Shown here: positions 1,002-12,140 of the stretch, one piece after another
Layout of the letters: every line of letters begins with the position of its first letter
How positions within the stretch are numbered: the stretch's first letter is position 1
From: Candidatus Thorarchaeota archaeon
GTDB taxonomy: Archaea > Asgardarchaeota > Thorarchaeia > Thorarchaeales > Thorarchaeaceae
DNA: 24,764 nt
Reading direction: 5' to 3'
NCBI GenBank assembly: GCA_020348985.1
Contig: CP070761.1
Location: 562,934 to 587,697, forward strand
The notes under the pieces: model-generated
Databases searched by the model: none
Told to the model about the DNA's origin: nothing
The model's input: the letters and a program-made list of their open reading frames with translations, nothing else
Position numbers and translations under genes: made by a program

Positions 1002-3323
1002 TCAGATCCAATCTGCGGTCTCGAGTTTTGTTGGGAGGTATTCATCAGTTAGATACTCAAAGGAATGAGCCGCGAATGACTGAATCTCTGCCTTCTCTTT
1101 GAGTTTGAGCATAAGTCCTAGGTCCTTAACCCATTCCTTATTGACCTGCACGAAGGGCTCCTTCAGCATGTCCTTGACTCGCTTCGTGTCAGTTGGTGTC
1201 ATAGGAATTCGGACGGCCTTGGGGATGTTGTACTCATCAAGATCACGACTGAGAACCCCCAGCAACTTAAGCTCGGGAGTTGCGATGAATGGTGACTCAT
1301 AGCTTAGTCTCTTACTTCCACGCAAGAAGACAGAATAGATGTAGTGTCCGTACGGATCGCTGTCAACCAGAGCAAATGCTGGGATTTCGAGCTCTTTGAC
1401 TAACGTCTTGAGAAACGCTCTTGTAGCAATGTCACCAGATCCTTTACCCGTCAACACGATACAGGGCTGCCGATTCCAGAACTTGGCCTCTGCGAGTCTC
1501 ATGACTGCAGCATCCTTTTCTGACAGTATGATATATTCAGCATCACTCTCAAGAATCTCAACTTGATCAAGAAACGGGGTAATGGCCCATCCTCCAGTTC
1601 CCATCCTAGTGAGGTCAATCCTGTCGCCGCCATCCTGGATAACTACTCGCCCCATTGCTGAGCCTCGTGCAGATGCTACAACGTGAATGCTGTCACGAGT
1701 TGTCTGAATCATTGATGCCAGGTCTTCAATGATCTTGTCGGAGTACTTCTGGTCACGAAACAGATTGACATCACTGTAGAAGACCTCTCGTTTCGTGGCA
1801 TGTAGATTCGATTTGAGTAGCTTGTATACAATTTCCATGACCCTTGCTGTGCGAGTAGCATCTACAACAGATGCCAGTGAGTGATACGGACGCGAGATTG
1901 TCCGCATGCCTAACAGCAGGAGGTCCCTGATCTCATCCCACACAATATTGTCAGCTGATCTACTCGGTATTTCGAATACTGGTCTACCAGACATCATGGT
2001 CTCGTGGAGAATCTCCATTGCGATTTCCACAAGCTTCTCGCTTGTTTCATCGGCGGTCAATGCCACGACTTCAACTGTGTCTTGGATTGGCGCCTCTGGA
2101 TCGGGAATTGCGGCTTTCTTCTCAGCTTCTTTCCATTTCTTTTTCATTTCCTTTGTGACTTTCTTGACAGACTCTGGAACCGGGAGCCCAGACCTCCCTC
2201 GCTTGATTTTCAGTCTCTTTCGTCCAACTCTTCTGGCTGGAATCTCCTCTTCTGGAGCTGGCATTGGTTCGACTTCGGGCTTGACGACTTCTACCTTCTT
2301 CTTGGGTTTCTTTGCTTTGGTTGGTTTGGGCTTGGCCTCGGCAGGCTTCTCTTCCGGTGGTGGTGCCTTCTTTTCAGAAACGACCTCTGGAGCTGATTCT
2401 CCAATAATGCTTTCGAGTTGCCGTCTCTGTATCAAATCTTTCGCAGCATAAACAACTTCAGATGCACGATCAATGCTGAGACCTCCAACAGCACTCGATA
2501 CTCTTCTCGGATCAGCTCTGGAAAGCCTAGCCACAGTATCGTAGCCTGATGATTCGAGCTTGATTGCAAGCTTCGAACCAACTCCAGGCACATCGGCTAG
2601 AGCAAACGCATGAGATGGCGGTGCTTCAGCTTCATCTTCGGGAGCATGCTCCGGTTTCTCTTTGGATTTCACAAGTCTTTTGGCTGCTGTTACTAGATTC
2701 TTTGCTCCGTCTTGGCTGACTCCGTCCACTTTCTTCGCGACAGATGCGTAGCGCGCTTTAGAGAGTTTCCAGACCGAAACGTATCCAGCTTTCTTGAGTT
2801 TTTCCTCCAGCTTTGGACCAACACTCGGAAGATCTCTGAGTGACACATCGAGGTCGGGCTCAACCGGTACCTCTTTCACGACTCTCTTCACAGCATCTGT
2901 CGTTTCAGGAGCTAGTGTCTTCTTTGCCAACTTCTTCTTCGGAGCCTTCTTCTTTAGTTCAGGTTTCTTCTTGGCAGCTGGCTTTTTCTTTGTGGGTTCC
3001 TCTTCCGGAGCCACCTCTTTCTTTGGTTCAGGCTTGTCCTTTTCAGGTGTCTTCTTCTTAGCAGCCGGTTTCTTCTTGGGAGCCGCCTTCTTCGGTTCAG
3101 GTTTATCCTTTTCAGGTGTCTTCTTCTTAGCAGCCGGTTTCTTCTTGGGAGCCGCCTTCTTCGGAGCAGTCTTCTTCGAGGTCTCTGGCTTCTTTGCAGC
3201 GCTTTTCTTGACTTTCGGCGTTGCAATGGCTTTCTTGGTCTTCTTCTTGTCTCCACTGTTCAACATTGTGTCCAGACTTGCTTGGACGACTTCGGGCTTT
3301 TTCTTGCGTTTCTTTGAGCTCAT
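1002..3323 (-). CDS. top6A: DNA topoisomerase VI subunit A (Spo11 family) with long N-terminal Lys-rich and HhH extension
   Basis: The C-terminal ~350 aa contain the 5Y-CAP catalytic Tyr motif TKREVFYSD, Toprim SEKDA, LTGKG and DSDPYG. The start overlaps the top6B stop (ATGA). Confidence 0.96.
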   Translation of the reverse strand: MSSKKRKKKPEVVQASLDTMLNSGDKKKTKKAIATPKVKKSAAKKPETSKKTAPKKAAPKKKPAAKKKTPEKDKPEPKKAAPKKKPAAKKKTPEKDKPEPKKEVAPEEEPTKKKPAAKKKPELKKKAPKKKLAKKTLAPETTDAVKRVVKEVPVEPDLDVSLRDLPSVGPKLEEKLKKAGYVSVWKLSKARYASVAKKVDGVSQDGAKNLVTAAKRLVKSKEKPEHAPEDEAEAPPSHAFALADVPGVGSKLAIKLESSGYDTVARLSRADPRRVSSAVGGLSIDRASEVVYAAKDLIQRRQLESIIGESAPEVVSEKKAPPPEEKPAEAKPKPTKAKKPKKKVEVVKPEVEPMPAPEEEIPARRVGRKRLKIKRGRSGLPVPESVKKVTKEMKKKWKEAEKKAAIPDPEAPIQDTVEVVALTADETSEKLVEIAMEILHETMMSGRPVFEIPSRSADNIVWDEIRDLLLLGMRTISRPYHSLASVVDATRTARVMEIVYKLLKSNLHATKREVFYSDVNLFRDQKYSDKIIEDLASMIQTTRDSIHVVASARGSAMGRVVIQDGGDRIDLTRMGTGGWAITPFLDQVEILESDAEYIILSEKDAAVMRLAEAKFWNRQPCIVLTGKGSGDIATRAFLKTLVKELEIPAFALVDSDPYGHYIYSVFLRGSKRLSYESPFIATPELKLLGVLSRDLDEYNIPKAVRIPMTPTDTKRVKDMLKEPFVQVNKEWVKDLGLMLKLKEKAEIQSFAAHSFEYLTDEYLPTKLETADWI
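3025..3162. repeat. Near-perfect 69-bp in-frame tandem duplication within top6A (KKAAPKKKPAAKKKTPEKDKPEP x2)
   Basis: The unit ggttcagg...gagccgccttcttc begins at 3025 and again at 3094. The copies differ only at a couple of synonymous positions. Confidence 0.93.
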
Positions 3324-5365
3324 TCAGATTCCACCTCGAGCACATCTTCGCCATCTTCTTCTCCCATGCCTAGTGGTACATCGGCCACAAGATCTGTTCC
3401 TCTTGTATCGGTTTCTGTCTCTTCTAAGTCCGTGAGAGTCTCGAATCCAGTAATTGCATCTCTAATCTTTCCGGCAACAATCTCACTGTCGAAATCACAG
3501 CTTGGATCTCCATCGTTTGCGATGCTAACCAAACTCTCAGCAAACTGGTCTGCGTACATAGCCAAAATGCCTGCTCGTTTTGCTTTTCGTCGGGCGGTCT
3601 CTCGACGAGTAATGAATCGCCTGAACTTTCTCCCTGCGTCCTCAAGGGCGAGTTTTATCTCTCTGAGCATGACTTCGTCTTCCGCCAGCGCTTGCTTACT
3701 CTGCCCCTTGAACATAACGTGAACATAAGCCCCTGCCACATGTATGAAGACCATTATCGGTCCTCTTGGTATTCCGTTGTCAAATGTGGCCACCTTGTAG
3801 TTCTTCCAGTTCACGGAAGCCGTGGCCTTCCAAGTGGCACAATCGCTGTTGTCTCGCAGCTTGGGAACACGATTGACAAAACGCCAAAGAACCATCGGTG
3901 CAGACGTGGCATTCTTTATTTCACCACCATACGCTATACAGGCTTCTACTGCGAAAGAAAGCCCCTTACCAGAGGTCGGCTTTCGAGTGACAGCCGTGAC
4001 GAAGTCAGGATTATACGCCATCTGAATTGTTTGTTCAAATATCTCTTCACCGACGGGGACAACAGTGTCTGTCGGAGGCGCAATGTAATCTTGATTGGAA
4101 AAGATCTTGTACAGATACTCTACCTCAGTCTTTGACAACCCGTCAGTCGGAGTCCTAGCGGACAGAACGTCTAGATGACGTCGCCTTAGCTCCTTGTTTG
4201 TGTCTGATACTATGGTCCTAGCTTTGTTGGGACTCAATCTACAGAAAGCTCGAGTAAGAAATCCCATTAGGTCCCTTTCCCTGGTCTCACGCAACAGGTC
4301 CTGAAACTCACCTATTCGGATGCTGGCTGGATGCGGTTGCGCGTACTTCGGTTCATCAGGAAATGCCTTGACTCTCCGAGGATAGATGAAGACCTTGCCA
4401 TAGGGATCAATGAAGACTAGCGTGACATGAGAGTTCAGGAGTGAAGCCATCTCTGCGTAAGTGTCCGCGTAGCCCCTTCTGTATTGTATGTTGAGATAGT
4501 TGAGCTTGATGTATGTACCATTCTCAAAGGGAAGGTCCATGTCAATTGGTCCTCCCACGTATTCTTTCGTGTTCGCAGTGGTTGTGTAGAAGTCTGCTAC
4601 AGTTGTTACTTCAGAAGTGAATCTCTTGGAAACTGTGAAGATCGGTTTCCCTGTTGTATTCTGCGAATCACTGAATGCCGAGGGCGCTCCGAAGCCCTGG
4701 CTTCCTCGTGTCTGTCTAAGCCGCTCCGATTTGCTCGAGGCAAGGTAGATCCCGTACTTCTCAAGATCGGATGCGATCATTCCTACGCCATTGTCAAAAC
4801 ATGTGAATTCGTATACCTTGAATCCTTCCTCATCATCGATTGGAACAAGGTCCGGCATGAACACCTCTGTTATCTGAATGACAGCAAAAGGCTCTCTCTT
4901 CTTTATTAGGCTACGGAACGGAACTAGGAACTTCCTGAAAGTTGTAAGACGGTCTTCCAAACTTTCTCTCCGTCGAGCTGGTATCTCTACTTCCTTTCCT
5001 GCTCGTATGTCTCGCTCAAGTTGTTTGCTAATAGCAATAGAGTCCTCCAACGTGGGCTCAAGTTTCGATCTTATTTCATCCACTATTTCGGGTTCCAGAT
5101 TGTCCTTTAGACGAGGTCGCTTGCTTGTCTTCCACCACCATGACTCAAGTGCGTCAATAGCATTGTCGAGGAACTCGATTGCGTACTGAGTGTGTTTGTT
5201 CAGTCCGGTCTCAAACCCGACCAGCTGAGTTCTCTTTCGCATGAACTTCGCAATCGTTCCCTGTCTGATGTCGCCTGAGTCTCCTGCAGGTGGAAGTCCT
5301 GTTTGCTCTGACTTCTTATTCGACTTGCCCGACGTCTTCTTAGTTTTCTTTCCCGACGGACTCAA
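3320..5365 (-). CDS. top6B: DNA topoisomerase VI subunit B
   Basis: GHKL motifs EFLDNAIDA, FDNGVGM, QTRGSQGFG and NGTYI. Transducer RFVNRVP and FKGQSKQ. TTG start with an upstream GGAGTG SD, adjacent to top6A. Confidence 0.96.
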   Translation of the reverse strand: MSPSGKKTKKTSGKSNKKSEQTGLPPAGDSGDIRQGTIAKFMRKRTQLVGFETGLNKHTQYAIEFLDNAIDALESWWWKTSKRPRLKDNLEPEIVDEIRSKLEPTLEDSIAISKQLERDIRAGKEVEIPARRRESLEDRLTTFRKFLVPFRSLIKKREPFAVIQITEVFMPDLVPIDDEEGFKVYEFTCFDNGVGMIASDLEKYGIYLASSKSERLRQTRGSQGFGAPSAFSDSQNTTGKPIFTVSKRFTSEVTTVADFYTTTANTKEYVGGPIDMDLPFENGTYIKLNYLNIQYRRGYADTYAEMASLLNSHVTLVFIDPYGKVFIYPRRVKAFPDEPKYAQPHPASIRIGEFQDLLRETRERDLMGFLTRAFCRLSPNKARTIVSDTNKELRRRHLDVLSARTPTDGLSKTEVEYLYKIFSNQDYIAPPTDTVVPVGEEIFEQTIQMAYNPDFVTAVTRKPTSGKGLSFAVEACIAYGGEIKNATSAPMVLWRFVNRVPKLRDNSDCATWKATASVNWKNYKVATFDNGIPRGPIMVFIHVAGAYVHVMFKGQSKQALAEDEVMLREIKLALEDAGRKFRRFITRRETARRKAKRAGILAMYADQFAESLVSIANDGDPSCDFDSEIVAGKIRDAITGFETLTDLEETETDTRGTDLVADVPLGMGEEDGEDVLEVESE

Positions 5366-7119: not shown

Positions 7120-7297
7120 TGTTGATAGTCCTGAGCCCGAAACTGAAACTGACAAGAATCCTGGTCTTTCTGACAAATAAGACACCTGAACCTCCAATCT
7201 CAGGATTTTGTATTAACTACATCGGTTGTATACTAATGTCAAGGATGTGACTTCGAGGTAGCAATCGAAGCGGAAAGGGCGGAAAGAAAAGGAGTGT

Positions 7298-7330
7298 GCG
7301 ACTCCCCGGAGCTTGGCCCCGGGAAGCCGC
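7298..7330 (-). terminator. GC-rich 15-bp stem-loop followed by a pyrimidine/U-rich tract, downstream of the MFS gene
   Basis: Minus strand reads GCGGCUUCCCGGGGC-CAA-GCUCCGGGGAGUCGC. All three non-Watson-Crick positions are G-U on this strand. It is followed by ACACUCCUUUUCUUUCC and lies about 30 nt after the MFS stop. Confidence 0.7.
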
Positions 7331-7362
7331 GTTGGAGATAGATAGTAACCTTCAATCTATGA

Positions 7363-8943
7363 TTAGTCTAAGTTCCCAACAAAGTCTGGGTCTCCCGAAA
7401 CATCCTGTGTATCCCACAGGTCACCTTGGGGTTTCAGTGTAGCGACAGTTTCCTCAACTAATGCAAGCTGAGGTGCCTCTTCAACTGGCTCACCCTCGGT
7501 GACCGTGGGTATTGCTTCGGAGATAGAAGACTTGTCTTGAGAATCGTCATGTGCTTTGGGGATGGGATAACTCAAACCTCGCCTTATCAGGAAGACTCCG
7601 CCAAGTGAAATTGCTGAGATGATTGCCAATGTGATTGGGAATCCTATGACTGAAAGTAACCATCCGAAGAAGGCAATCTGTGGCATTGCGAAGATTGTCA
7701 TTAGTGTTGGAGTGAGACTGTACATCGAGTTGCGAATTCGGTTGGGTATCACATCCAGCAAGAGTCGCTGAGTCAAGATCTCGGCCATTGCTCCGGTGAA
7801 TGAGGTCCCGATAAAGGCTGAAGTGAGGAGTAGAACCGGGAGCAGGTTCGCGGCGGGAATCTCTAGAAGCACAATATCTGTGAAAGGTAGGATTAAGCTG
7901 GCAACCGCCGACCCAGCCGCAGCGGGAGGCAAGAGCCACATGATGACTGCTATCAGCATGTAGAACAGTGAGCCGCCAAGCTGTAGGAATCTGAATCTGG
8001 GAATCCACTTCTTCGGCTCGAACCTTCTTGACCAGATGCCAGAGCGTTCCTGTGAAAACACCCCAGGAATGAATAGGATTGTCCGGTAGCTTGACACCGC
8101 AATGTCTGTCAACAAGTATGAGAAGTAGAGTGGGAACAAGATCAAGTTGCCCCAAACCATCGTACTGCTGAACATGACACAGCCGCCGATGATGACGTAG
8201 AAAACAAACTTGTCACTCACAAGGAAGCTGACGCCTGACTTGAGAAGATTGGTATACTCACTCATTGTGGGCCGCTTCTCTCTTGCCGCCTCAACTTCTG
8301 GGAAGTCCTTGACGAATCTGAGGACCGTGATTGCGATTAGAACAGATAGCAACGCCTGAACTTGGAAGACCCAGGGTCTACCCCAGACTGTAGCAAGTAT
8401 AGCACCTGGTATCAGAGAAAGGGTGGACACGATCTGGAAGAGCATTCCAACTCTCCCCATGAACACGCCATACTGCTTTCTGTTCTCATCGCCCGGCATG
8501 GCAATTCTGTAGTTGTTGTCGAACCATGCCATGAAAGACCCAGACATCTGTGAATTGCCGAGCCCCATGAATATGTAGATGACAATAAGGTAGGCAAACG
8601 GAGTTGCTGAGTTGACGAAGGAGACCATGAAGAATGCTACCGCAAATGATCCGAATGCGGCTGCAATGATGTATCTCTGCCCAATCCAGTCGCCGATTGC
8701 TCCAGTTGGATAATCCAGAATGACCTGTACGAGCATCTGGAAGACGACGAGTACGCCAACTATTCCCAGACCTTCAATGAATGATCCGTGCCCCACAGCC
8801 TCTGCAACAAATATCATGAAGAACGTGGTTGAGAGTGTAACAGTTGCAGACACAATGGGTAGGAGCATAGATAGTATTTTGGCCAAAGAGAGTGTCTTCT
8901 CATTGGCGTCAGTGAGACCGTAGAATGTCGCTGTTCTGCTCAT
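7363..8943 (-). CDS. MFS transporter with an acidic C-terminal tail
   Basis: About 12 hydrophobic segments, motif A-like DYPTGAIGDWIGQR and a C-terminal loop DVIPNRIRNSMYSL. ATG at 8943 (MSRTAT) is chosen; alternative starts are 8952 and 8958. Confidence 0.92.
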   Translation of the reverse strand: MSRTATFYGLTDANEKTLSLAKILSMLLPIVSATVTLSTTFFMIFVAEAVGHGSFIEGLGIVGVLVVFQMLVQVILDYPTGAIGDWIGQRYIIAAAFGSFAVAFFMVSFVNSATPFAYLIVIYIFMGLGNSQMSGSFMAWFDNNYRIAMPGDENRKQYGVFMGRVGMLFQIVSTLSLIPGAILATVWGRPWVFQVQALLSVLIAITVLRFVKDFPEVEAAREKRPTMSEYTNLLKSGVSFLVSDKFVFYVIIGGCVMFSSTMVWGNLILFPLYFSYLLTDIAVSSYRTILFIPGVFSQERSGIWSRRFEPKKWIPRFRFLQLGGSLFYMLIAVIMWLLPPAAAGSAVASLILPFTDIVLLEIPAANLLPVLLLTSAFIGTSFTGAMAEILTQRLLLDVIPNRIRNSMYSLTPTLMTIFAMPQIAFFGWLLSVIGFPITLAIISAISLGGVFLIRRGLSYPIPKAHDDSQDKSSISEAIPTVTEGEPVEEAPQLALVEETVATLKPQGDLWDTQDVSGDPDFVGNLD

Positions 8944-9155
8944 CCTGCGCATCCCCAACAGTCATGTCCGTTAATCGGACTTGATTCAATTCGGCCAAGT
9001 CCTCTTGGCTCGAATTCCTTGCTTCCTACTCCGTTCAATGGATAATTCTCCACGTGTGTAAATGACTGGTCACACGTTATGCTGATAGTGGGCCTTCGTG
9101 CCCAGTTCTGTGGGCAGTATGTGGCCAGGTCGGGCAAGGTTCTATCGTAGGTCAT
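8940..9155 (-). CDS. Hypothetical 71-aa protein (MTYDRTLPDL...NGHDCWGCAG)
   Basis: GGAGA SD just before the ATG at 9155. Its TGA overlaps the MFS ATG (ATGA). A TTTATATG TATA-like element lies upstream at ~9213-9220. No recognisable family. Confidence 0.5.
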   Translation of the reverse strand: MTYDRTLPDLATYCPQNWARRPTISITCDQSFTHVENYPLNGVGSKEFEPRGLGRIESSPINGHDCWGCAG

Positions 9156-9209
9156 TGCTCTCCATCTCCATTTTAGTTTGTTCCCCAAACGTTCTCAGCA
9201 CAGACCTAA

Positions 9210-9228
9210 GTTCATATAAAGGTTTGCT
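9210..9228 (-). promoter_or_regulatory. Putative archaeal BRE/TATA promoter for the 71-aa ORF and MFS unit
   Basis: Minus strand reads AGCAAACCTTTATATGAAC: a purine-rich BRE-like stretch plus TTTATAT. Confidence 0.5.
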
Positions 9229-9281
9229 TCACCAACTATAATTAGCATTTGGTTCGTATAAGAGTCCTTCGCATGACGCAA

Positions 9282-9371
9282 CTACCTACGGAAGTAGGAA
9301 TATGCCATCGCACTGGTGCTGATGTTCTTCTTTGAACCGTGAGTATTCTTGATTTTCTTCGCAATCGCCAT
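9282..9371 (-). CDS. 29-aa basic small peptide, copy 1: MAIAKKIKNTHGSKKNISTSAMAYSYFRR
   Basis: ATG to TAG by manual translation. Same length as its paralog at 10970-11059, 22/29 identical, with synonymous changes at A21, Y24 and R28. GTGA SD-like motif and a TATA box upstream. Confidence 0.75.
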   Translation of the reverse strand: MAIAKKIKNTHGSKKNISTSAMAYSYFRR

Positions 9372-9399
9372 GTTTTTTCACAAGAATTACTGTGCCGAT

Positions 9400-9411
9400 T
9401 CAGTATATAAT
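9400..9411 (-). promoter_or_regulatory. TATA box of peptide copy 1
   Basis: Minus strand ATTATATACTGA, identical in copy 2 (11088-11099), about 30-40 nt upstream of the ATG. Confidence 0.7.
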
Positions 9412-9441
9412 GCGGAGCCACAATTGAGGGTCACAGAATAG

Positions 9442-9458
9442 AGTCACATAATGTGACT
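9442..9458. promoter_or_regulatory. Perfect 8-1-8 palindromic operator AGTCACAT-A-ATGTGACT
   Basis: Perfect inverted repeat, conserved in copy 2 with only the central base changed. An extra GTCACA half-site lies 13 bp to the left in both copies. Confidence 0.8.
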
Positions 9459-9476
9459 ATCTCGACGACTCGATTA

Positions 9477-10949
9477 TTACAGCTCCTTCTTAATGACATG
9501 GTTCACTAGACTATTTAGGTCTGCAAACTCGCTTTCATAGTAGACATCAGGTTGGACCCTTGTCTCTTCGTTGGCGCTTCCTGTGTAGTCGATCCCCATC
9601 CCAGGAGTGAATCTGACCACAAGTTTGGAGTTTGGTAGAATGTAGTAGATGGGAGAGTCACTAATGCCATCCCCTCCCGTGGGTGTGCCGTAGAGCTTGG
9701 CGAATCCGGTCTCCTTGCAGAAGAGTGCAAATGCGTCTGTGGCAGAGAAGGTCTCACCATCTATGAGAAGCACAATCTTTCCCTTGAAGTCGAATTCTCC
9801 TGATGACCCTACTGTCTGAGTGTAGTCATATATCGTGAAGTCATCTGCTAACACTTCTGGGGGCAGCTCATCGAACACGTCCTTTGAGACAATTGAACCG
9901 ATGTCAGCAGTTTCTCTGAACATTTCTACGTATGCGCCGGATCTAAACGCCAGGTGCATCCTGCTGCTCAAGGTCTTCTTTGCAAGTGGGGATATGACGT
10001 TCGTCATCCAGGGCAGATAGCTACCCCCCTCATTTCCACGAACGTCAATGATGAGCAGTCTGTAATCCTCGATTTGCTTGTAGAAGTCCAACAAAACTCT
10101 GCTATCTTCTTCAAACATCCCGTCAGAGAAATCTCCAATCCTGATATATGCAGCACCTCTCTTGGGCCAGGTTCTCGTTTCCAGCCTAGGTACTGGGTAT
10201 TTGATGGTGGCATAAGGATATGGAAAGTCATATCCTGAAGGAAATACAACCTGTTTCTCTTCTCCTGACTTCCTTCTTATTGTGAATTCTGCGTCGGGTC
10301 CGAAATGTCGGGGAGCTATTTTCCACAGATAGTGCTTCTCCCTCTTGAAATCCCAGTCCAGAAACCCTTTCTCATAGCAGCCTTGTATTGCTTCATCGAT
10401 TGGTATGCCATTGACAGCAGTCACTATTGTCCTCTTGCCGTATCTCTTCTCCCACGAACCATGACCTGTGGCGATGAGATATTCTCCGTTATTGTAGACG
10501 ATGAACACATCGAAGTTGAGGTAGATCCTATGTTTGAAGTACTCCTCAATGATTGGTTCCCAATACGCGTAGTATTCTTTGAGTTTGTCTGTGAAGATGT
10601 GACAGTAGGGTTCCTTAGTTCTATATTCTTCGACATCATAGTAATCATAGAGCCAATCAGGAATGAGGATGATTGTGTGTCTGTTCTGAAGTGCTTGGAC
10701 CGCGTCAAACAGGACATCGAGATACTCCAACGTGGACTCAGATTCCTGCATTCTGTCACGATATCCTCGAAGCAGATCCAGCCATGCATATCCATGGGTC
10801 CTTTCCTTTAGAGAGATGTAAGGATTGCTTTGCTTCATAAGGCGAAACAACGTTTCGAGATCTGTCAGCCAATCGTCTTTCGTCATATTCTTTGGATGAA
10901 CCGGATTCAATCTGAGCTCTTGAGGGTAGGTCATGAGAGTGCCGTCCAT
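9477..10949 (-). CDS. S41 family peptidase (C-terminal processing/IRBP-like), no obvious signal peptide
   Basis: Motifs AYIRIGDF, LIIDVRGNEGG, VLLIDGETFSATDAF (catalytic Ser), LYGTPTGG and RVQPDV. PDZ-like VTAVNGIPI segment. Confidence 0.92.
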   Translation of the reverse strand: MDGTLMTYPQELRLNPVHPKNMTKDDWLTDLETLFRLMKQSNPYISLKERTHGYAWLDLLRGYRDRMQESESTLEYLDVLFDAVQALQNRHTIILIPDWLYDYYDVEEYRTKEPYCHIFTDKLKEYYAYWEPIIEEYFKHRIYLNFDVFIVYNNGEYLIATGHGSWEKRYGKRTIVTAVNGIPIDEAIQGCYEKGFLDWDFKREKHYLWKIAPRHFGPDAEFTIRRKSGEEKQVVFPSGYDFPYPYATIKYPVPRLETRTWPKRGAAYIRIGDFSDGMFEEDSRVLLDFYKQIEDYRLLIIDVRGNEGGSYLPWMTNVISPLAKKTLSSRMHLAFRSGAYVEMFRETADIGSIVSKDVFDELPPEVLADDFTIYDYTQTVGSSGEFDFKGKIVLLIDGETFSATDAFALFCKETGFAKLYGTPTGGDGISDSPIYYILPNSKLVVRFTPGMGIDYTGSANEETRVQPDVYYESEFADLNSLVNHVIKKEL

Positions 10950-10969
10950 CTAATCTTCGTACGACGCAA

Positions 10970-11059
10970 CTACCTGCGGAAGTAATTGTATGCCATTGCA
11001 TCTGCGTTGATTCTCTTCTTTGAACTGTGAGTTTTCTTGATTTTCTTCGCAATCGCCAT
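10970..11059 (-). CDS. 29-aa basic small peptide, copy 2: MAIAKKIKKTHSSKKRINADAMAYNYFRR
   Basis: ATG to TAG by manual translation. Paralog of 9282-9371. Ends 20 nt before the S41 peptidase ATG. Confidence 0.75.
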   Translation of the reverse strand: MAIAKKIKKTHSSKKRINADAMAYNYFRR

Positions 11060-11087
11060 GATTATTCACGACCGTTAGAGAGCATAG

Positions 11088-11099
11088 TCAGTATATAAT
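11088..11099 (-). promoter_or_regulatory. TATA box of peptide copy 2 / S41 unit
   Basis: Minus strand ATTATATACTGA, identical to copy 1. Confidence 0.7.
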
Positions 11100-11129
11100 A
11101 CGGAGCCACGAATAAGGGTCACAGAACAG

Positions 11130-11146
11130 AGTCACATGATGTGACT
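11130..11146. promoter_or_regulatory. Perfect 8-1-8 palindromic operator AGTCACAT-G-ATGTGACT
   Basis: Perfect inverted repeat at the same distance from the TATA as in copy 1. Lies in the divergent region shared with the hydroxyacyl-CoA dehydrogenase gene. Confidence 0.8.
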
Positions 11147-11258
11147 ATTGCAACGAGCACCACCACGCGAATCAGACACAGCTGACGCCTCTGAGGGACA
11201 CACATATTACGCACCTTTTGTCGAGCAGTTGGTGCATTACCAGTTCGAGGTAGTATCC

Positions 11259-12140
11259 ATGGAGATAAAGAAGATAGCAGTTCTGGGCGCAGGACAAATG
11301 GGAAACGGGATTGCCCATGTTTGTGCCCAAGCTGGATACGAGGTAAAGATGAGGGACATCGAACAGAAGTTCCTAGACAAGGGACTAGCGGCAATCACGA
11401 AGAATCTAGAGCGAGGTCTCAAGAAGGGTAGAATCACTCAAGAGGAGATAGATGCAATTCTTGGCCGGATAGAGCCAGTATTGGATCTAGGAGATTCGGT
11501 CAAAGATGCGGACCTCGTGATAGAGGCCATCCCAGAGATAGTAAAGCTGAAGCTAGAGACTTGGGGCGAGGTCGACAAGACCGCTCCAGAGCATGCGATT
11601 CTAGCTTCTAATACTTCAAGCATCAGCATAACACAGATGGCAGCTGTTACGAACAGACCAGAGAAGTTCATTGGTATGCACTTCTTCAATCCTGTCCCAG
11701 TGATGGGGCTTGTGGAGATTATCAAGGGCCAAGCAACTTCGGATGAAACGGTTAAGGTCATTGAGGACGTTTCTGCCAAAATCGGCAAGGAGACTGTCCT
11801 TGTCAACGAGGCCCCAGGGTTTGCTGTGAATCGGTTACTTGTTCCAGCACTCAACGAGGCCGTATTCGTAATTCAAGAGGGTATTGCGACAGTGGAGGAC
11901 ATGGACAAAGCAATCAAGCTCGGACTCAACTGGCCGATGGGTCCGTTGACGCTTATGGACTTCGTGGGACTCGACACAGCCCTCTACATATCCGACTACT
12001 TCGTGGACGAATTCAAGGATAGCAAGTATCGTGCCCCTGCATTGTTGCGAAAGATGGTTCGTGCAGGTTGGCTAGGTCGAAAGTCCGGCAGAGGATTCTA
12101 CGATTATAGCGGAGACGAGCCAAAGCCGATAAGGTTCTAA
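11259..12140 (+). CDS. hbd: 3-hydroxybutyryl-CoA / 3-hydroxyacyl-CoA dehydrogenase
   Basis: Motifs IAVLGAGQMGNGIA, VIEAIPE, ASNTSS, GMHFFNP, PMGP..LMDFVGLD and GRKSGRGFY. ATG at 11259 with an upstream GAGGT SD. Confidence 0.95.
   Translation: MEIKKIAVLGAGQMGNGIAHVCAQAGYEVKMRDIEQKFLDKGLAAITKNLERGLKKGRITQEEIDAILGRIEPVLDLGDSVKDADLVIEAIPEIVKLKLETWGEVDKTAPEHAILASNTSSISITQMAAVTNRPEKFIGMHFFNPVPVMGLVEIIKGQATSDETVKVIEDVSAKIGKETVLVNEAPGFAVNRLLVPALNEAVFVIQEGIATVEDMDKAIKLGLNWPMGPLTLMDFVGLDTALYISDYFVDEFKDSKYRAPALLRKMVRAGWLGRKSGRGFYDYSGDEPKPIRF

Follow-up and report, generated by a model that had tools for sequence, protein, structure and literature searches.

Architecture of the locus

The DNA analyzed here, a window of 24,764 nucleotides (nt) from the genome of a Candidatus Thorarchaeota archaeon (GCA_020348985.1, contig CP070761.1, positions 562,934 to 587,697), possesses on its minus strand two open reading frames (ORFs) for basic peptides of 29 amino acids, B1 (9282..9371; net charge +7) and B2 (10970..11059; net charge +8), which adjoin the genes for an S41-family peptidase and a transporter of the major facilitator superfamily (MFS). 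B1 and B2 are genuine members of a lineage-specific family of basic micro-proteins that is undescribed in the libraries and papers that we searched. Both peptides match the profile hidden Markov model (HMM) of this family over their full length (E 4e-15 for B1 and 4e-12 for B2), begin with ATG and are of the family's length, and the profile gave no background matches. Translation and alignment bore out the positions of the two ORFs and their identity at 22/29 residues, which had been reported in a first-pass annotation of this sequence.

The two micro-ORFs reside in a direct repeat of 202 nt (9267-9468 versus 10955-11156; 81% identical). Within each copy, a 21-nt palindrome comes first, then the third GTGAC box and a GTGGCTCCG stretch; a TTATATA box and a diverged spacer lead up to the ORF, and about 10 conserved bases lie behind the stop codon. 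The palindromic operators of module 2 (11128..11148) and module 1 (9440..9460), which have a GTCACA-N2-TGTGAC core, were read in the sequence, recovered by an exact pattern match in the window's own genome, and are kept across genera. The third GTGAC(CC) boxes (11115..11126 and 9427..9438) were recognized in the sequence, in the repeat alignment and by motif searches. The TATA box of module 2 (11092..11098) starts 39 nt before the ATG, with equal spacing in relatives; that of module 1 (9404..9410), at about the same distance, is conserved in relatives as well. A conserved initiator-like motif, cTTGTGAAA, is found in module 1 at about 9376-9384. The palindrome, the third GTGAC box, the TATA box and the ends of the ORF were kept between the two copies, and the approximately 28 nt from TATA to ATG diverged. 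This alignment supports the earlier description of palindrome-TATA modules with a diverged spacer and a C-terminal block in which three codons changed synonymously, one each for Ala (GCG/GCA), Tyr (TAT/TAC) and Arg (CGT/CGC). After the duplication, both B1 and B2 retained the ATG, the frame, the length and both conserved ends.

The stop codon of B2 lies 20 nt before the ATG of the gene for the S41-family peptidase (490 amino acids; 9477..10949). This protein matches PF03572 with 80.7 bits (cut-off 24 bits) over residues 267-470 and possesses no N-terminal membrane segment as judged by eye. It scored 20.2 bits against the 218.6-bit cut-off of TIGR00225, and is thus not assigned to the Prc/Ctp subfamily of S41; Pfam reported no PDZ family in it at E up to 0.01. 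Module 1 with B1 follows, and a second TATA-like element (AACCTTTATATG; 9213..9224), also found between the peptides and the MFS gene in two other genera, and a degenerate array of GGTCAC/GTGACC boxes (9065..9128) are located in front of the transporter gene. The MFS transporter (7363..8937; start 8937, stop 7363) comprises 524 amino acids from the ATG to which its orthologues align and matches PF07690 with 54.2 bits (cut-off 33.4 bits); it matched no NCBIfam subfamily, and no PDB relative was found by sequence. The unit appears to end in a terminator-like element (7283..7330) made up of a hairpin at 7298-7330 (-33 kcal/mol; z = -2.95) and a T-tract at 7283-7290. Pfam searches, ORF reading and folding thereby substantiated the S41 gene, the MFS gene, a 71-amino-acid ORF (8940..9155) and the hairpin as components of the minus strand.

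The micro-protein family and its three-cistron operon

B1 and B2 have further relatives and do not form a private pair. With the peptide HMM we found exactly nine members at six loci of the 3.16-Mb genome, all with E 4e-8 or better; no further small-ORF match appeared up to a cut-off of E = 5, and no larger protein of this genome was found to contain the motif. Of the nine members, six belong to a shorter B type and the other three to a longer A type. At the DNA level, a search of this genome revealed a third promoter module, followed by a 36-amino-acid ORF, a 29-amino-acid ORF akin to B1 and B2, and a 40-amino-acid ORF. A further single B-type micro-ORF is situated just upstream of a gene for a GNAT acetyltransferase (L087:429-1216; contig 1705728-1706515); its upstream region is a different one and contains GGTCAC/GTGACC words.

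The family was matched in 53 of the 59 genomes of the same taxonomic family of Thorarchaeota, with up to 11 matches per genome; outside it, 191 genomes that represent 27 other families of the same phylum gave no match. Its members are 26-37 amino acids long, and 55 of the 56 unique peptides start with ATG. Their N-terminus reads MA[LI]A(K) and their end (I/Q)ST.A[IL].Y.Y..R(R), and the basic linker between the two differs in length; conservation is strongest in the last dozen residues, and the N-terminus is conserved too. Among 1.84 billion representative proteins, 48 small ones of the same length class match the profile, so that gene callers have already picked up such peptides in metagenomes. 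Searches of Pfam and NCBIfam with A and C (C being the third cistron described below) and of Pfam with B gave no match, nor did comparisons of the A/B and C profiles with PDB sequences; Rfam, searched with the interval 7300-11300 and E values of 1 or less, gave none either. In the ESM Atlas, A and C have look-alikes with scores up to 0.85, which belong to unnamed, uninformative clusters, and full-text searches of the literature turned up no description of the family. The first-pass annotation had recognized no known family for these peptides, and our searches agree. Routine annotation readily overlooks genes of this size. New here are the family, which persists in almost every Thorarchaeota genome sampled, and its operon. 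Among known organisms, the Asgard archaea, to which these genomes belong, are most closely related to eukaryotes.

In its commonest form, the family occurs as a three-cistron micro-operon, A-B-C, without a protease or transporter gene beside it. A comprises 33-38 amino acids (mean net charge about +5) and B 26-31 amino acids (mean net charge about +7); C, with 30-41 amino acids, is acidic and variable save for its last eight residues, which end in ..VL.LEAT. The cistrons are closely spaced, with 5-8 nt between A and B and, in 13 of 18 cassettes, 6 nt between B and C. The codons for the last eight residues of C lie within a 9-bp hairpin, with the stop codon in its 3' arm and a T-run behind it (L003:1802-1969 and 18 related loci); because of this hairpin and T-run, the A-B-C operon is self-terminating. 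Three pairs of the hairpin show compensating changes that are either synonymous (GTG/GTA, CTC/CTT) or exchange one stop codon for another (TGA/TAA), and the loop varies at third codon positions. Hence, this stretch seems to have a double role, as protein-coding sequence and as terminator. A convergent gene often lies behind the operon, and about 10 of 34 cassettes share a neighborhood with a divergent upstream gene for an ArsR/PadR-like protein, a weak label given that the best Pfam matches fall below curated cut-offs, and a convergent downstream gene for an S-adenosylmethionine-dependent methyltransferase. The ArsR-linked core cassette adjoins one or two genes for proteins of about 125 amino acids that carry a ..WQ(T/S)(S/N)NW.. 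motif and have no Pfam match (L020:33-404, L088:1170-2004); these may resemble Asgard profilins. In the window's own genome, C-type ORFs occur at two other loci only, and B1 and B2, with no C ORF 0-12 nt behind them, do not belong to an A-B-C arrangement.

B and C share a reading frame in 17 of the 18 cassettes, and the stop codon of B is TAG in 15 of them. Read-through is disfavored by two cassettes that carry a second in-frame stop in the B-C gap. Among the long ORFs of the window's own genome, TAG is the most frequent stop codon, and no suppressor tRNA was seen. A public library lists three apparent B-C fusion proteins of 70-90 amino acids, and the two of them that we looked up are gene-calling artefacts in which TAG is read as Gln. 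The AlphaFold2 model of an A-type member is a single helix, with a mean predicted local distance difference test (pLDDT) value of 66 overall and 80 in the conserved block. Co-folding of A, B and C gave a score of 0.02, which counts neither way. A supposed likeness of C to the Escherichia coli protein SgrT was rejected after comparison with the real SgrT sequence.

Taken together, the comparisons indicate that the micro-ORFs code for conserved, presumably translated micro-proteins. Over orthologous pairs, the pooled pN/pS ratio is 0.28 (pairwise Nei-Gojobori), a sign of purifying selection in keeping with the selection on the peptides postulated in the first-pass annotation. The B1/B2 pair alone, with 5 synonymous and 10 non-synonymous differences, yields an omega of 0.41 (NG86), a statistically weak value; since this comparison comprises 15 differences, the coding case rests on the relatives. 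RNAalifold, applied to twelve whole cassettes, found no shared structure over the codons of A and B and solely the hairpin at the end of C, and we therefore rejected RNA structure as the cause of the A/B conservation. Second cistrons possess GGAGGT-type Shine-Dalgarno sites within the last codons of the preceding ORF; the Arg-Arg-stop and Val-Arg-stop ends are thus partly explained by the Shine-Dalgarno site of the next ORF. The window copies use CGT, CGC and AGG codons to maintain the Arg-Arg end, and no ORF follows close behind. Public DNA reads from sediments contain the locus.

The GTGAC-box switch and its associated genes

A DNA segment of about 100 nt, which we refer to as the switch, precedes the micro-ORFs. 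It combines the inverted GTCACA/TGTGAC repeat with the third GTGACCC box and the TATA box, and ends in the initiator-like TTGTGAAA, some 8 nt ahead of the ATG. This GTGAC-box operator-promoter is conserved across genera, and from locus to locus it varies less than the coding part. It stands before most cassettes outside the ArsR-linked locus, including all that are linked to an MFS gene. In the window's own genome, the palindrome occurs at three peptide loci and once, in compact form, before a bactofilin gene. Here, the compact operator-promoter precedes the gene for a 422-amino-acid protein with a bactofilin domain without an intervening micro-ORF (L014:1200-2850; contig position 2787094), and it is located 20 nt after the stop codon of a small gene whose product has a weak winged-helix match (HTH_45, below the Pfam cut-off). 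This small winged-helix protein is a candidate regulator of the GTGAC boxes. An extra match to the palindrome at genome position 1083243 lies inside a coding region that is ferredoxin-type as judged by eye (CxxCxxC), and we took it as a chance occurrence.

In several genera, the GGTCAC/GTGACC array is found between the peptides and the MFS gene, and it was seen exclusively where peptides occur (13/13); in two genomes it directly precedes a second micro-ORF. An RNA stem is a disfavored explanation of this array: inspection by eye of the window's MFS leader showed that the left arm has changed without compensation, which makes DNA sites the likelier interpretation. We infer that the GTGAC boxes are DNA sites for one putative DNA-binding regulator. 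The family would then represent a defined regulon, with a DNA motif, three peptides that can be synthesized, and one lineage-specific transporter.

The linkage of the A/B peptides to the MFS gene is recurrent and real. The transporter itself is present in 34 of 40 genomes of the taxonomic family, and one or two A/B matches were found at 13 of the 30 MFS loci fetched from family genomes. Under a stricter rule, which demands an upstream position on the same strand, 12 of 32 MFS rows were positive, and these come from several subclades within a single well-supported clade of MFS proteins. In a second sample, 24 of 72 evaluable MFS loci have between one and three A/B ORFs in the 900 nt upstream of the gene; a C ORF was found upstream of the MFS gene at none of these 72 loci. 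As a genome of 3 Mb contains no more than about a dozen copies, the adjacency expected by chance is well under one percent. These counts come from kin genomes, and one old arrangement followed by losses explains much of the pattern. The distance between the micro-ORFs and the MFS start ranges from 100 to 870 nt.

The S41 gene presents a different picture. Its orthologues (60-65% identity) were detected in two of the 40 other genomes of the family, and both have a different upstream region with neither a peptide nor such a promoter. The genome of a same-genus relative is collinear with the window, with the MFS gene on one side and a gene for a 3-hydroxyacyl-CoA dehydrogenase on the other; between them it possesses one promoter module with A and B, in the place where the window genome carries one hybrid ORF, and no S41 gene. 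Since the syntenic locus has a single module without S41 and the orthologues elsewhere are unlinked, this comparison of genomes shows that the S41 gene and the second module copy are a recent addition in the line of the window genome. Of the linkage to protease and transporter genes expected from the first-pass annotation, the transporter part is thus upheld and the protease part is not. Its proposal of a system of precursor, protease and exporter, which rested on this one recent gene insertion, is not supported: the S41 gene is local, the peptides contain no processing motif, and the 71-amino-acid ORF has no sequence homologue in 40 family genomes.

This four-cysteine ORF, which covers the box array, is a doubtful gene and belongs to no conserved system. 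Its positional analogues are unrelated in sequence, save for a CxxC in three of them. Its TGA overlaps the ATG of the MFS gene (ATGA), an overlap that the conserved Met-Ser start of the transporter makes by itself. An unrelated small ORF ends at or across the MFS start in 22 of 29 scored cases, with ATGA in 12 of the 29 (L042-L071). Several of these pre-MFS small ORFs end in ..Y.Y.WRL.., and the MFS gene has its Shine-Dalgarno site in their Trp-Arg codons.

Possible roles of the micro-proteins

Our preferred explanation combines a genuine micro-protein family and a shared switch with trans-acting partners inside the cell and a local capture of S41; we assign it, as a whole, a probability of about 0.45. 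A regulator acting on the GTGAC boxes would switch on the micro-proteins, the MFS transporter and, in the window genome, the S41 peptidase together, and each of the window ORFs is the first cistron behind its switch. The ancestral layout would have been one module with micro-ORFs upstream of the MFS gene; as the synteny shows, a sporadic S41 gene later entered the window line with the second module copy and, as a consequence, now stands behind the same switch. The micro-proteins would most likely have an intracellular, trans-acting role, as small partners or modulators that belong to one regulon with the transporter, and their binding target could be the transporter, the regulator or a nucleic acid. 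Export and protease processing appear improbable. This view of a trans action is suggested by three properties: the commonest form of the operon is self-terminating and carries no payload gene, no export or processing signals are apparent in the hydrophilic, basic peptides, and the operon also encodes an acidic partner. The mean grand average of hydropathy (GRAVY) is -0.60 for A and -0.89 for B, with -0.66 and -0.91 for the window copies, and we found no signal sequence, double glycine, Cys or hydrophobic stretch in the peptides.

In E. coli, SgrT, which is encoded beside SetA under the control of SgrR, MntS with MntP, MgtS, and AcrZ are small-protein modulators that are co-regulated with a transporter. 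As in our proposal, a protein of 30-50 amino acids and a membrane transporter are produced from the same stress-responsive switch, and in E. coli K-12, sgrT stands directly before the MFS exporter gene setA. The Thorarchaeota family differs in that it is multi-copy and usually has a three-gene operon of its own, and by eye it bears no sequence likeness to SgrT; a binding of its peptides to the MFS protein would be an extension by analogy.

Several observations weigh against this preferred explanation. The genomes of one taxonomic family are kin, and our counts overstate their independence. The sole RNA run with the locus, a sediment metatranscriptome, contributed two 151-nt contigs, both inside the MFS gene (7509-7816; at least 99% identity). 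They hint weakly at MFS expression, with DNA carry-over possible; no contig fell on the peptides, and the run thus gives no sign that the micro-ORFs are expressed. The window copies lack a C partner and could be decaying relics. Moreover, micro-ORFs located 20 nt before S41 and 24 nt before the longest ORF of the GNAT gene fit a leader function equally well.

Such a function in cis is the main rival, an unlikely one in our estimate. Translation of the micro-ORF, perhaps with stalling at the aromatic-Arg-Arg-stop end, would control the gene behind it (S41, MFS or GNAT). It would account for the place of the ORF as first cistron in a portable promoter module, of which a copy stands before S41, for a length near that of the ribosomal exit tunnel, for the peak of conservation in the C-terminal dozen residues, and for the short gaps, which besides those to S41 and to the longest GNAT ORF amount to 35-38 nt at two further loci (L036 and L054). 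Leaders such as SpeFL, TnaC and those of cmlA, fexA and ermC exert translation-based control of a downstream gene in bacteria; like them, the micro-ORFs are short, basic and upstream of a transporter or enzyme gene, with an aromatic C-terminal end at the stop codon and a length similar to SpeFL. However, the commonest A-B-C form is free-standing, ends in its own terminator and has no payload gene, so that these operons lack what marks ribosome-arrest leader peptides, namely a position always directly upstream of, and co-transcribed with, the regulated gene. The distance of the micro-ORFs to the MFS start also disagrees with a leader, and a second conserved TATA element and the box array intervene; in addition, the N-terminus is conserved as well, and the C-terminal conservation is in part that of the next ORF's Shine-Dalgarno site. 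A more specific proposal, that A and B are nascent-peptide sensors of tunnel length that read a metabolite or drug and gate the MFS, S41 or C ORF, strikes us as rather improbable. It is compatible with the short distances to S41 and other genes, the conserved C-terminal block at the stop codon and the fixed coupling geometry and, if true, would be an archaeal translational control of a kind that we have not seen described.

We likewise give little credence to exported peptides, signals or antagonists as in the first-pass annotation, that would be leaderless, basic, pumped out by the MFS transporter, and processed or resisted by means of the S41 protease. Tandem paralogous leaderless peptides do adjoin the transporter gene in a third of the MFS loci, a layout that recalls leaderless multi-peptide bacteriocins and phenol-soluble modulins. 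In aureocin A70, enterocin L50 and psm-alpha with its Pmt exporter, tandem leaderless paralogous peptides of 20-45 amino acids are encoded in multiple copies near a transporter, and the psm genes are encoded in the core genome. Those peptides are hydrophobic or amphipathic and have ABC exporters; here, in contrast, the peptides are hydrophilic and basic (GRAVY -0.6 to -0.9), an MFS gene is the neighbor and a third, acidic peptide accompanies them. The mean hydrophobicity of their last 12 residues is about 0, which is not that of an amphipathic or hydrophobic membrane-active helix. To our knowledge, MFS pumps carry small molecules rather than unmodified peptides of 3-4 kDa. Despite the recurrent adjacency, most cassettes have no transporter beside them, which leaves peptide transport by a dedicated exporter putative, and a family that is near-universal in its lineage is not strain-specific. 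Pheromone and class II bacteriocin loci with precursor, protease and exporter share the gene order of this one window; they differ from it in that the S41 gene is missing from the same-genus syntenic locus and unlinked elsewhere, and in that the peptides carry no processing motif.

Similarly doubtful is the idea that selection acts on the promoter-operator driving S41 and MFS, and that the 29-codon ORFs are truncated remains of A-B(-C) retained as a 5' leader. The single hybrid ORF behind a module whose same-genus homologue is followed by A and B, the missing C, the promoter that surpasses the coding part in conservation and an omega value from only 15 differences are all in line with it. A relic, on the other hand, would not be expected to keep its ATG, frame, length and both conserved ends in two copies, or an Arg-Arg end maintained by synonymous codons where no downstream ORF needs a Shine-Dalgarno site, and single A/B ORFs before the MFS gene are kept in several genera.

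The same window contains, on the minus strand, the genes for topoisomerase VI subunit B (3320-5365) and subunit A (1002-3323). Subunit A has an N-terminal extension of about 480 amino acids with helix-hairpin-helix motifs and Lys-rich tandem repeats (DNA repeats at 2900-3176).

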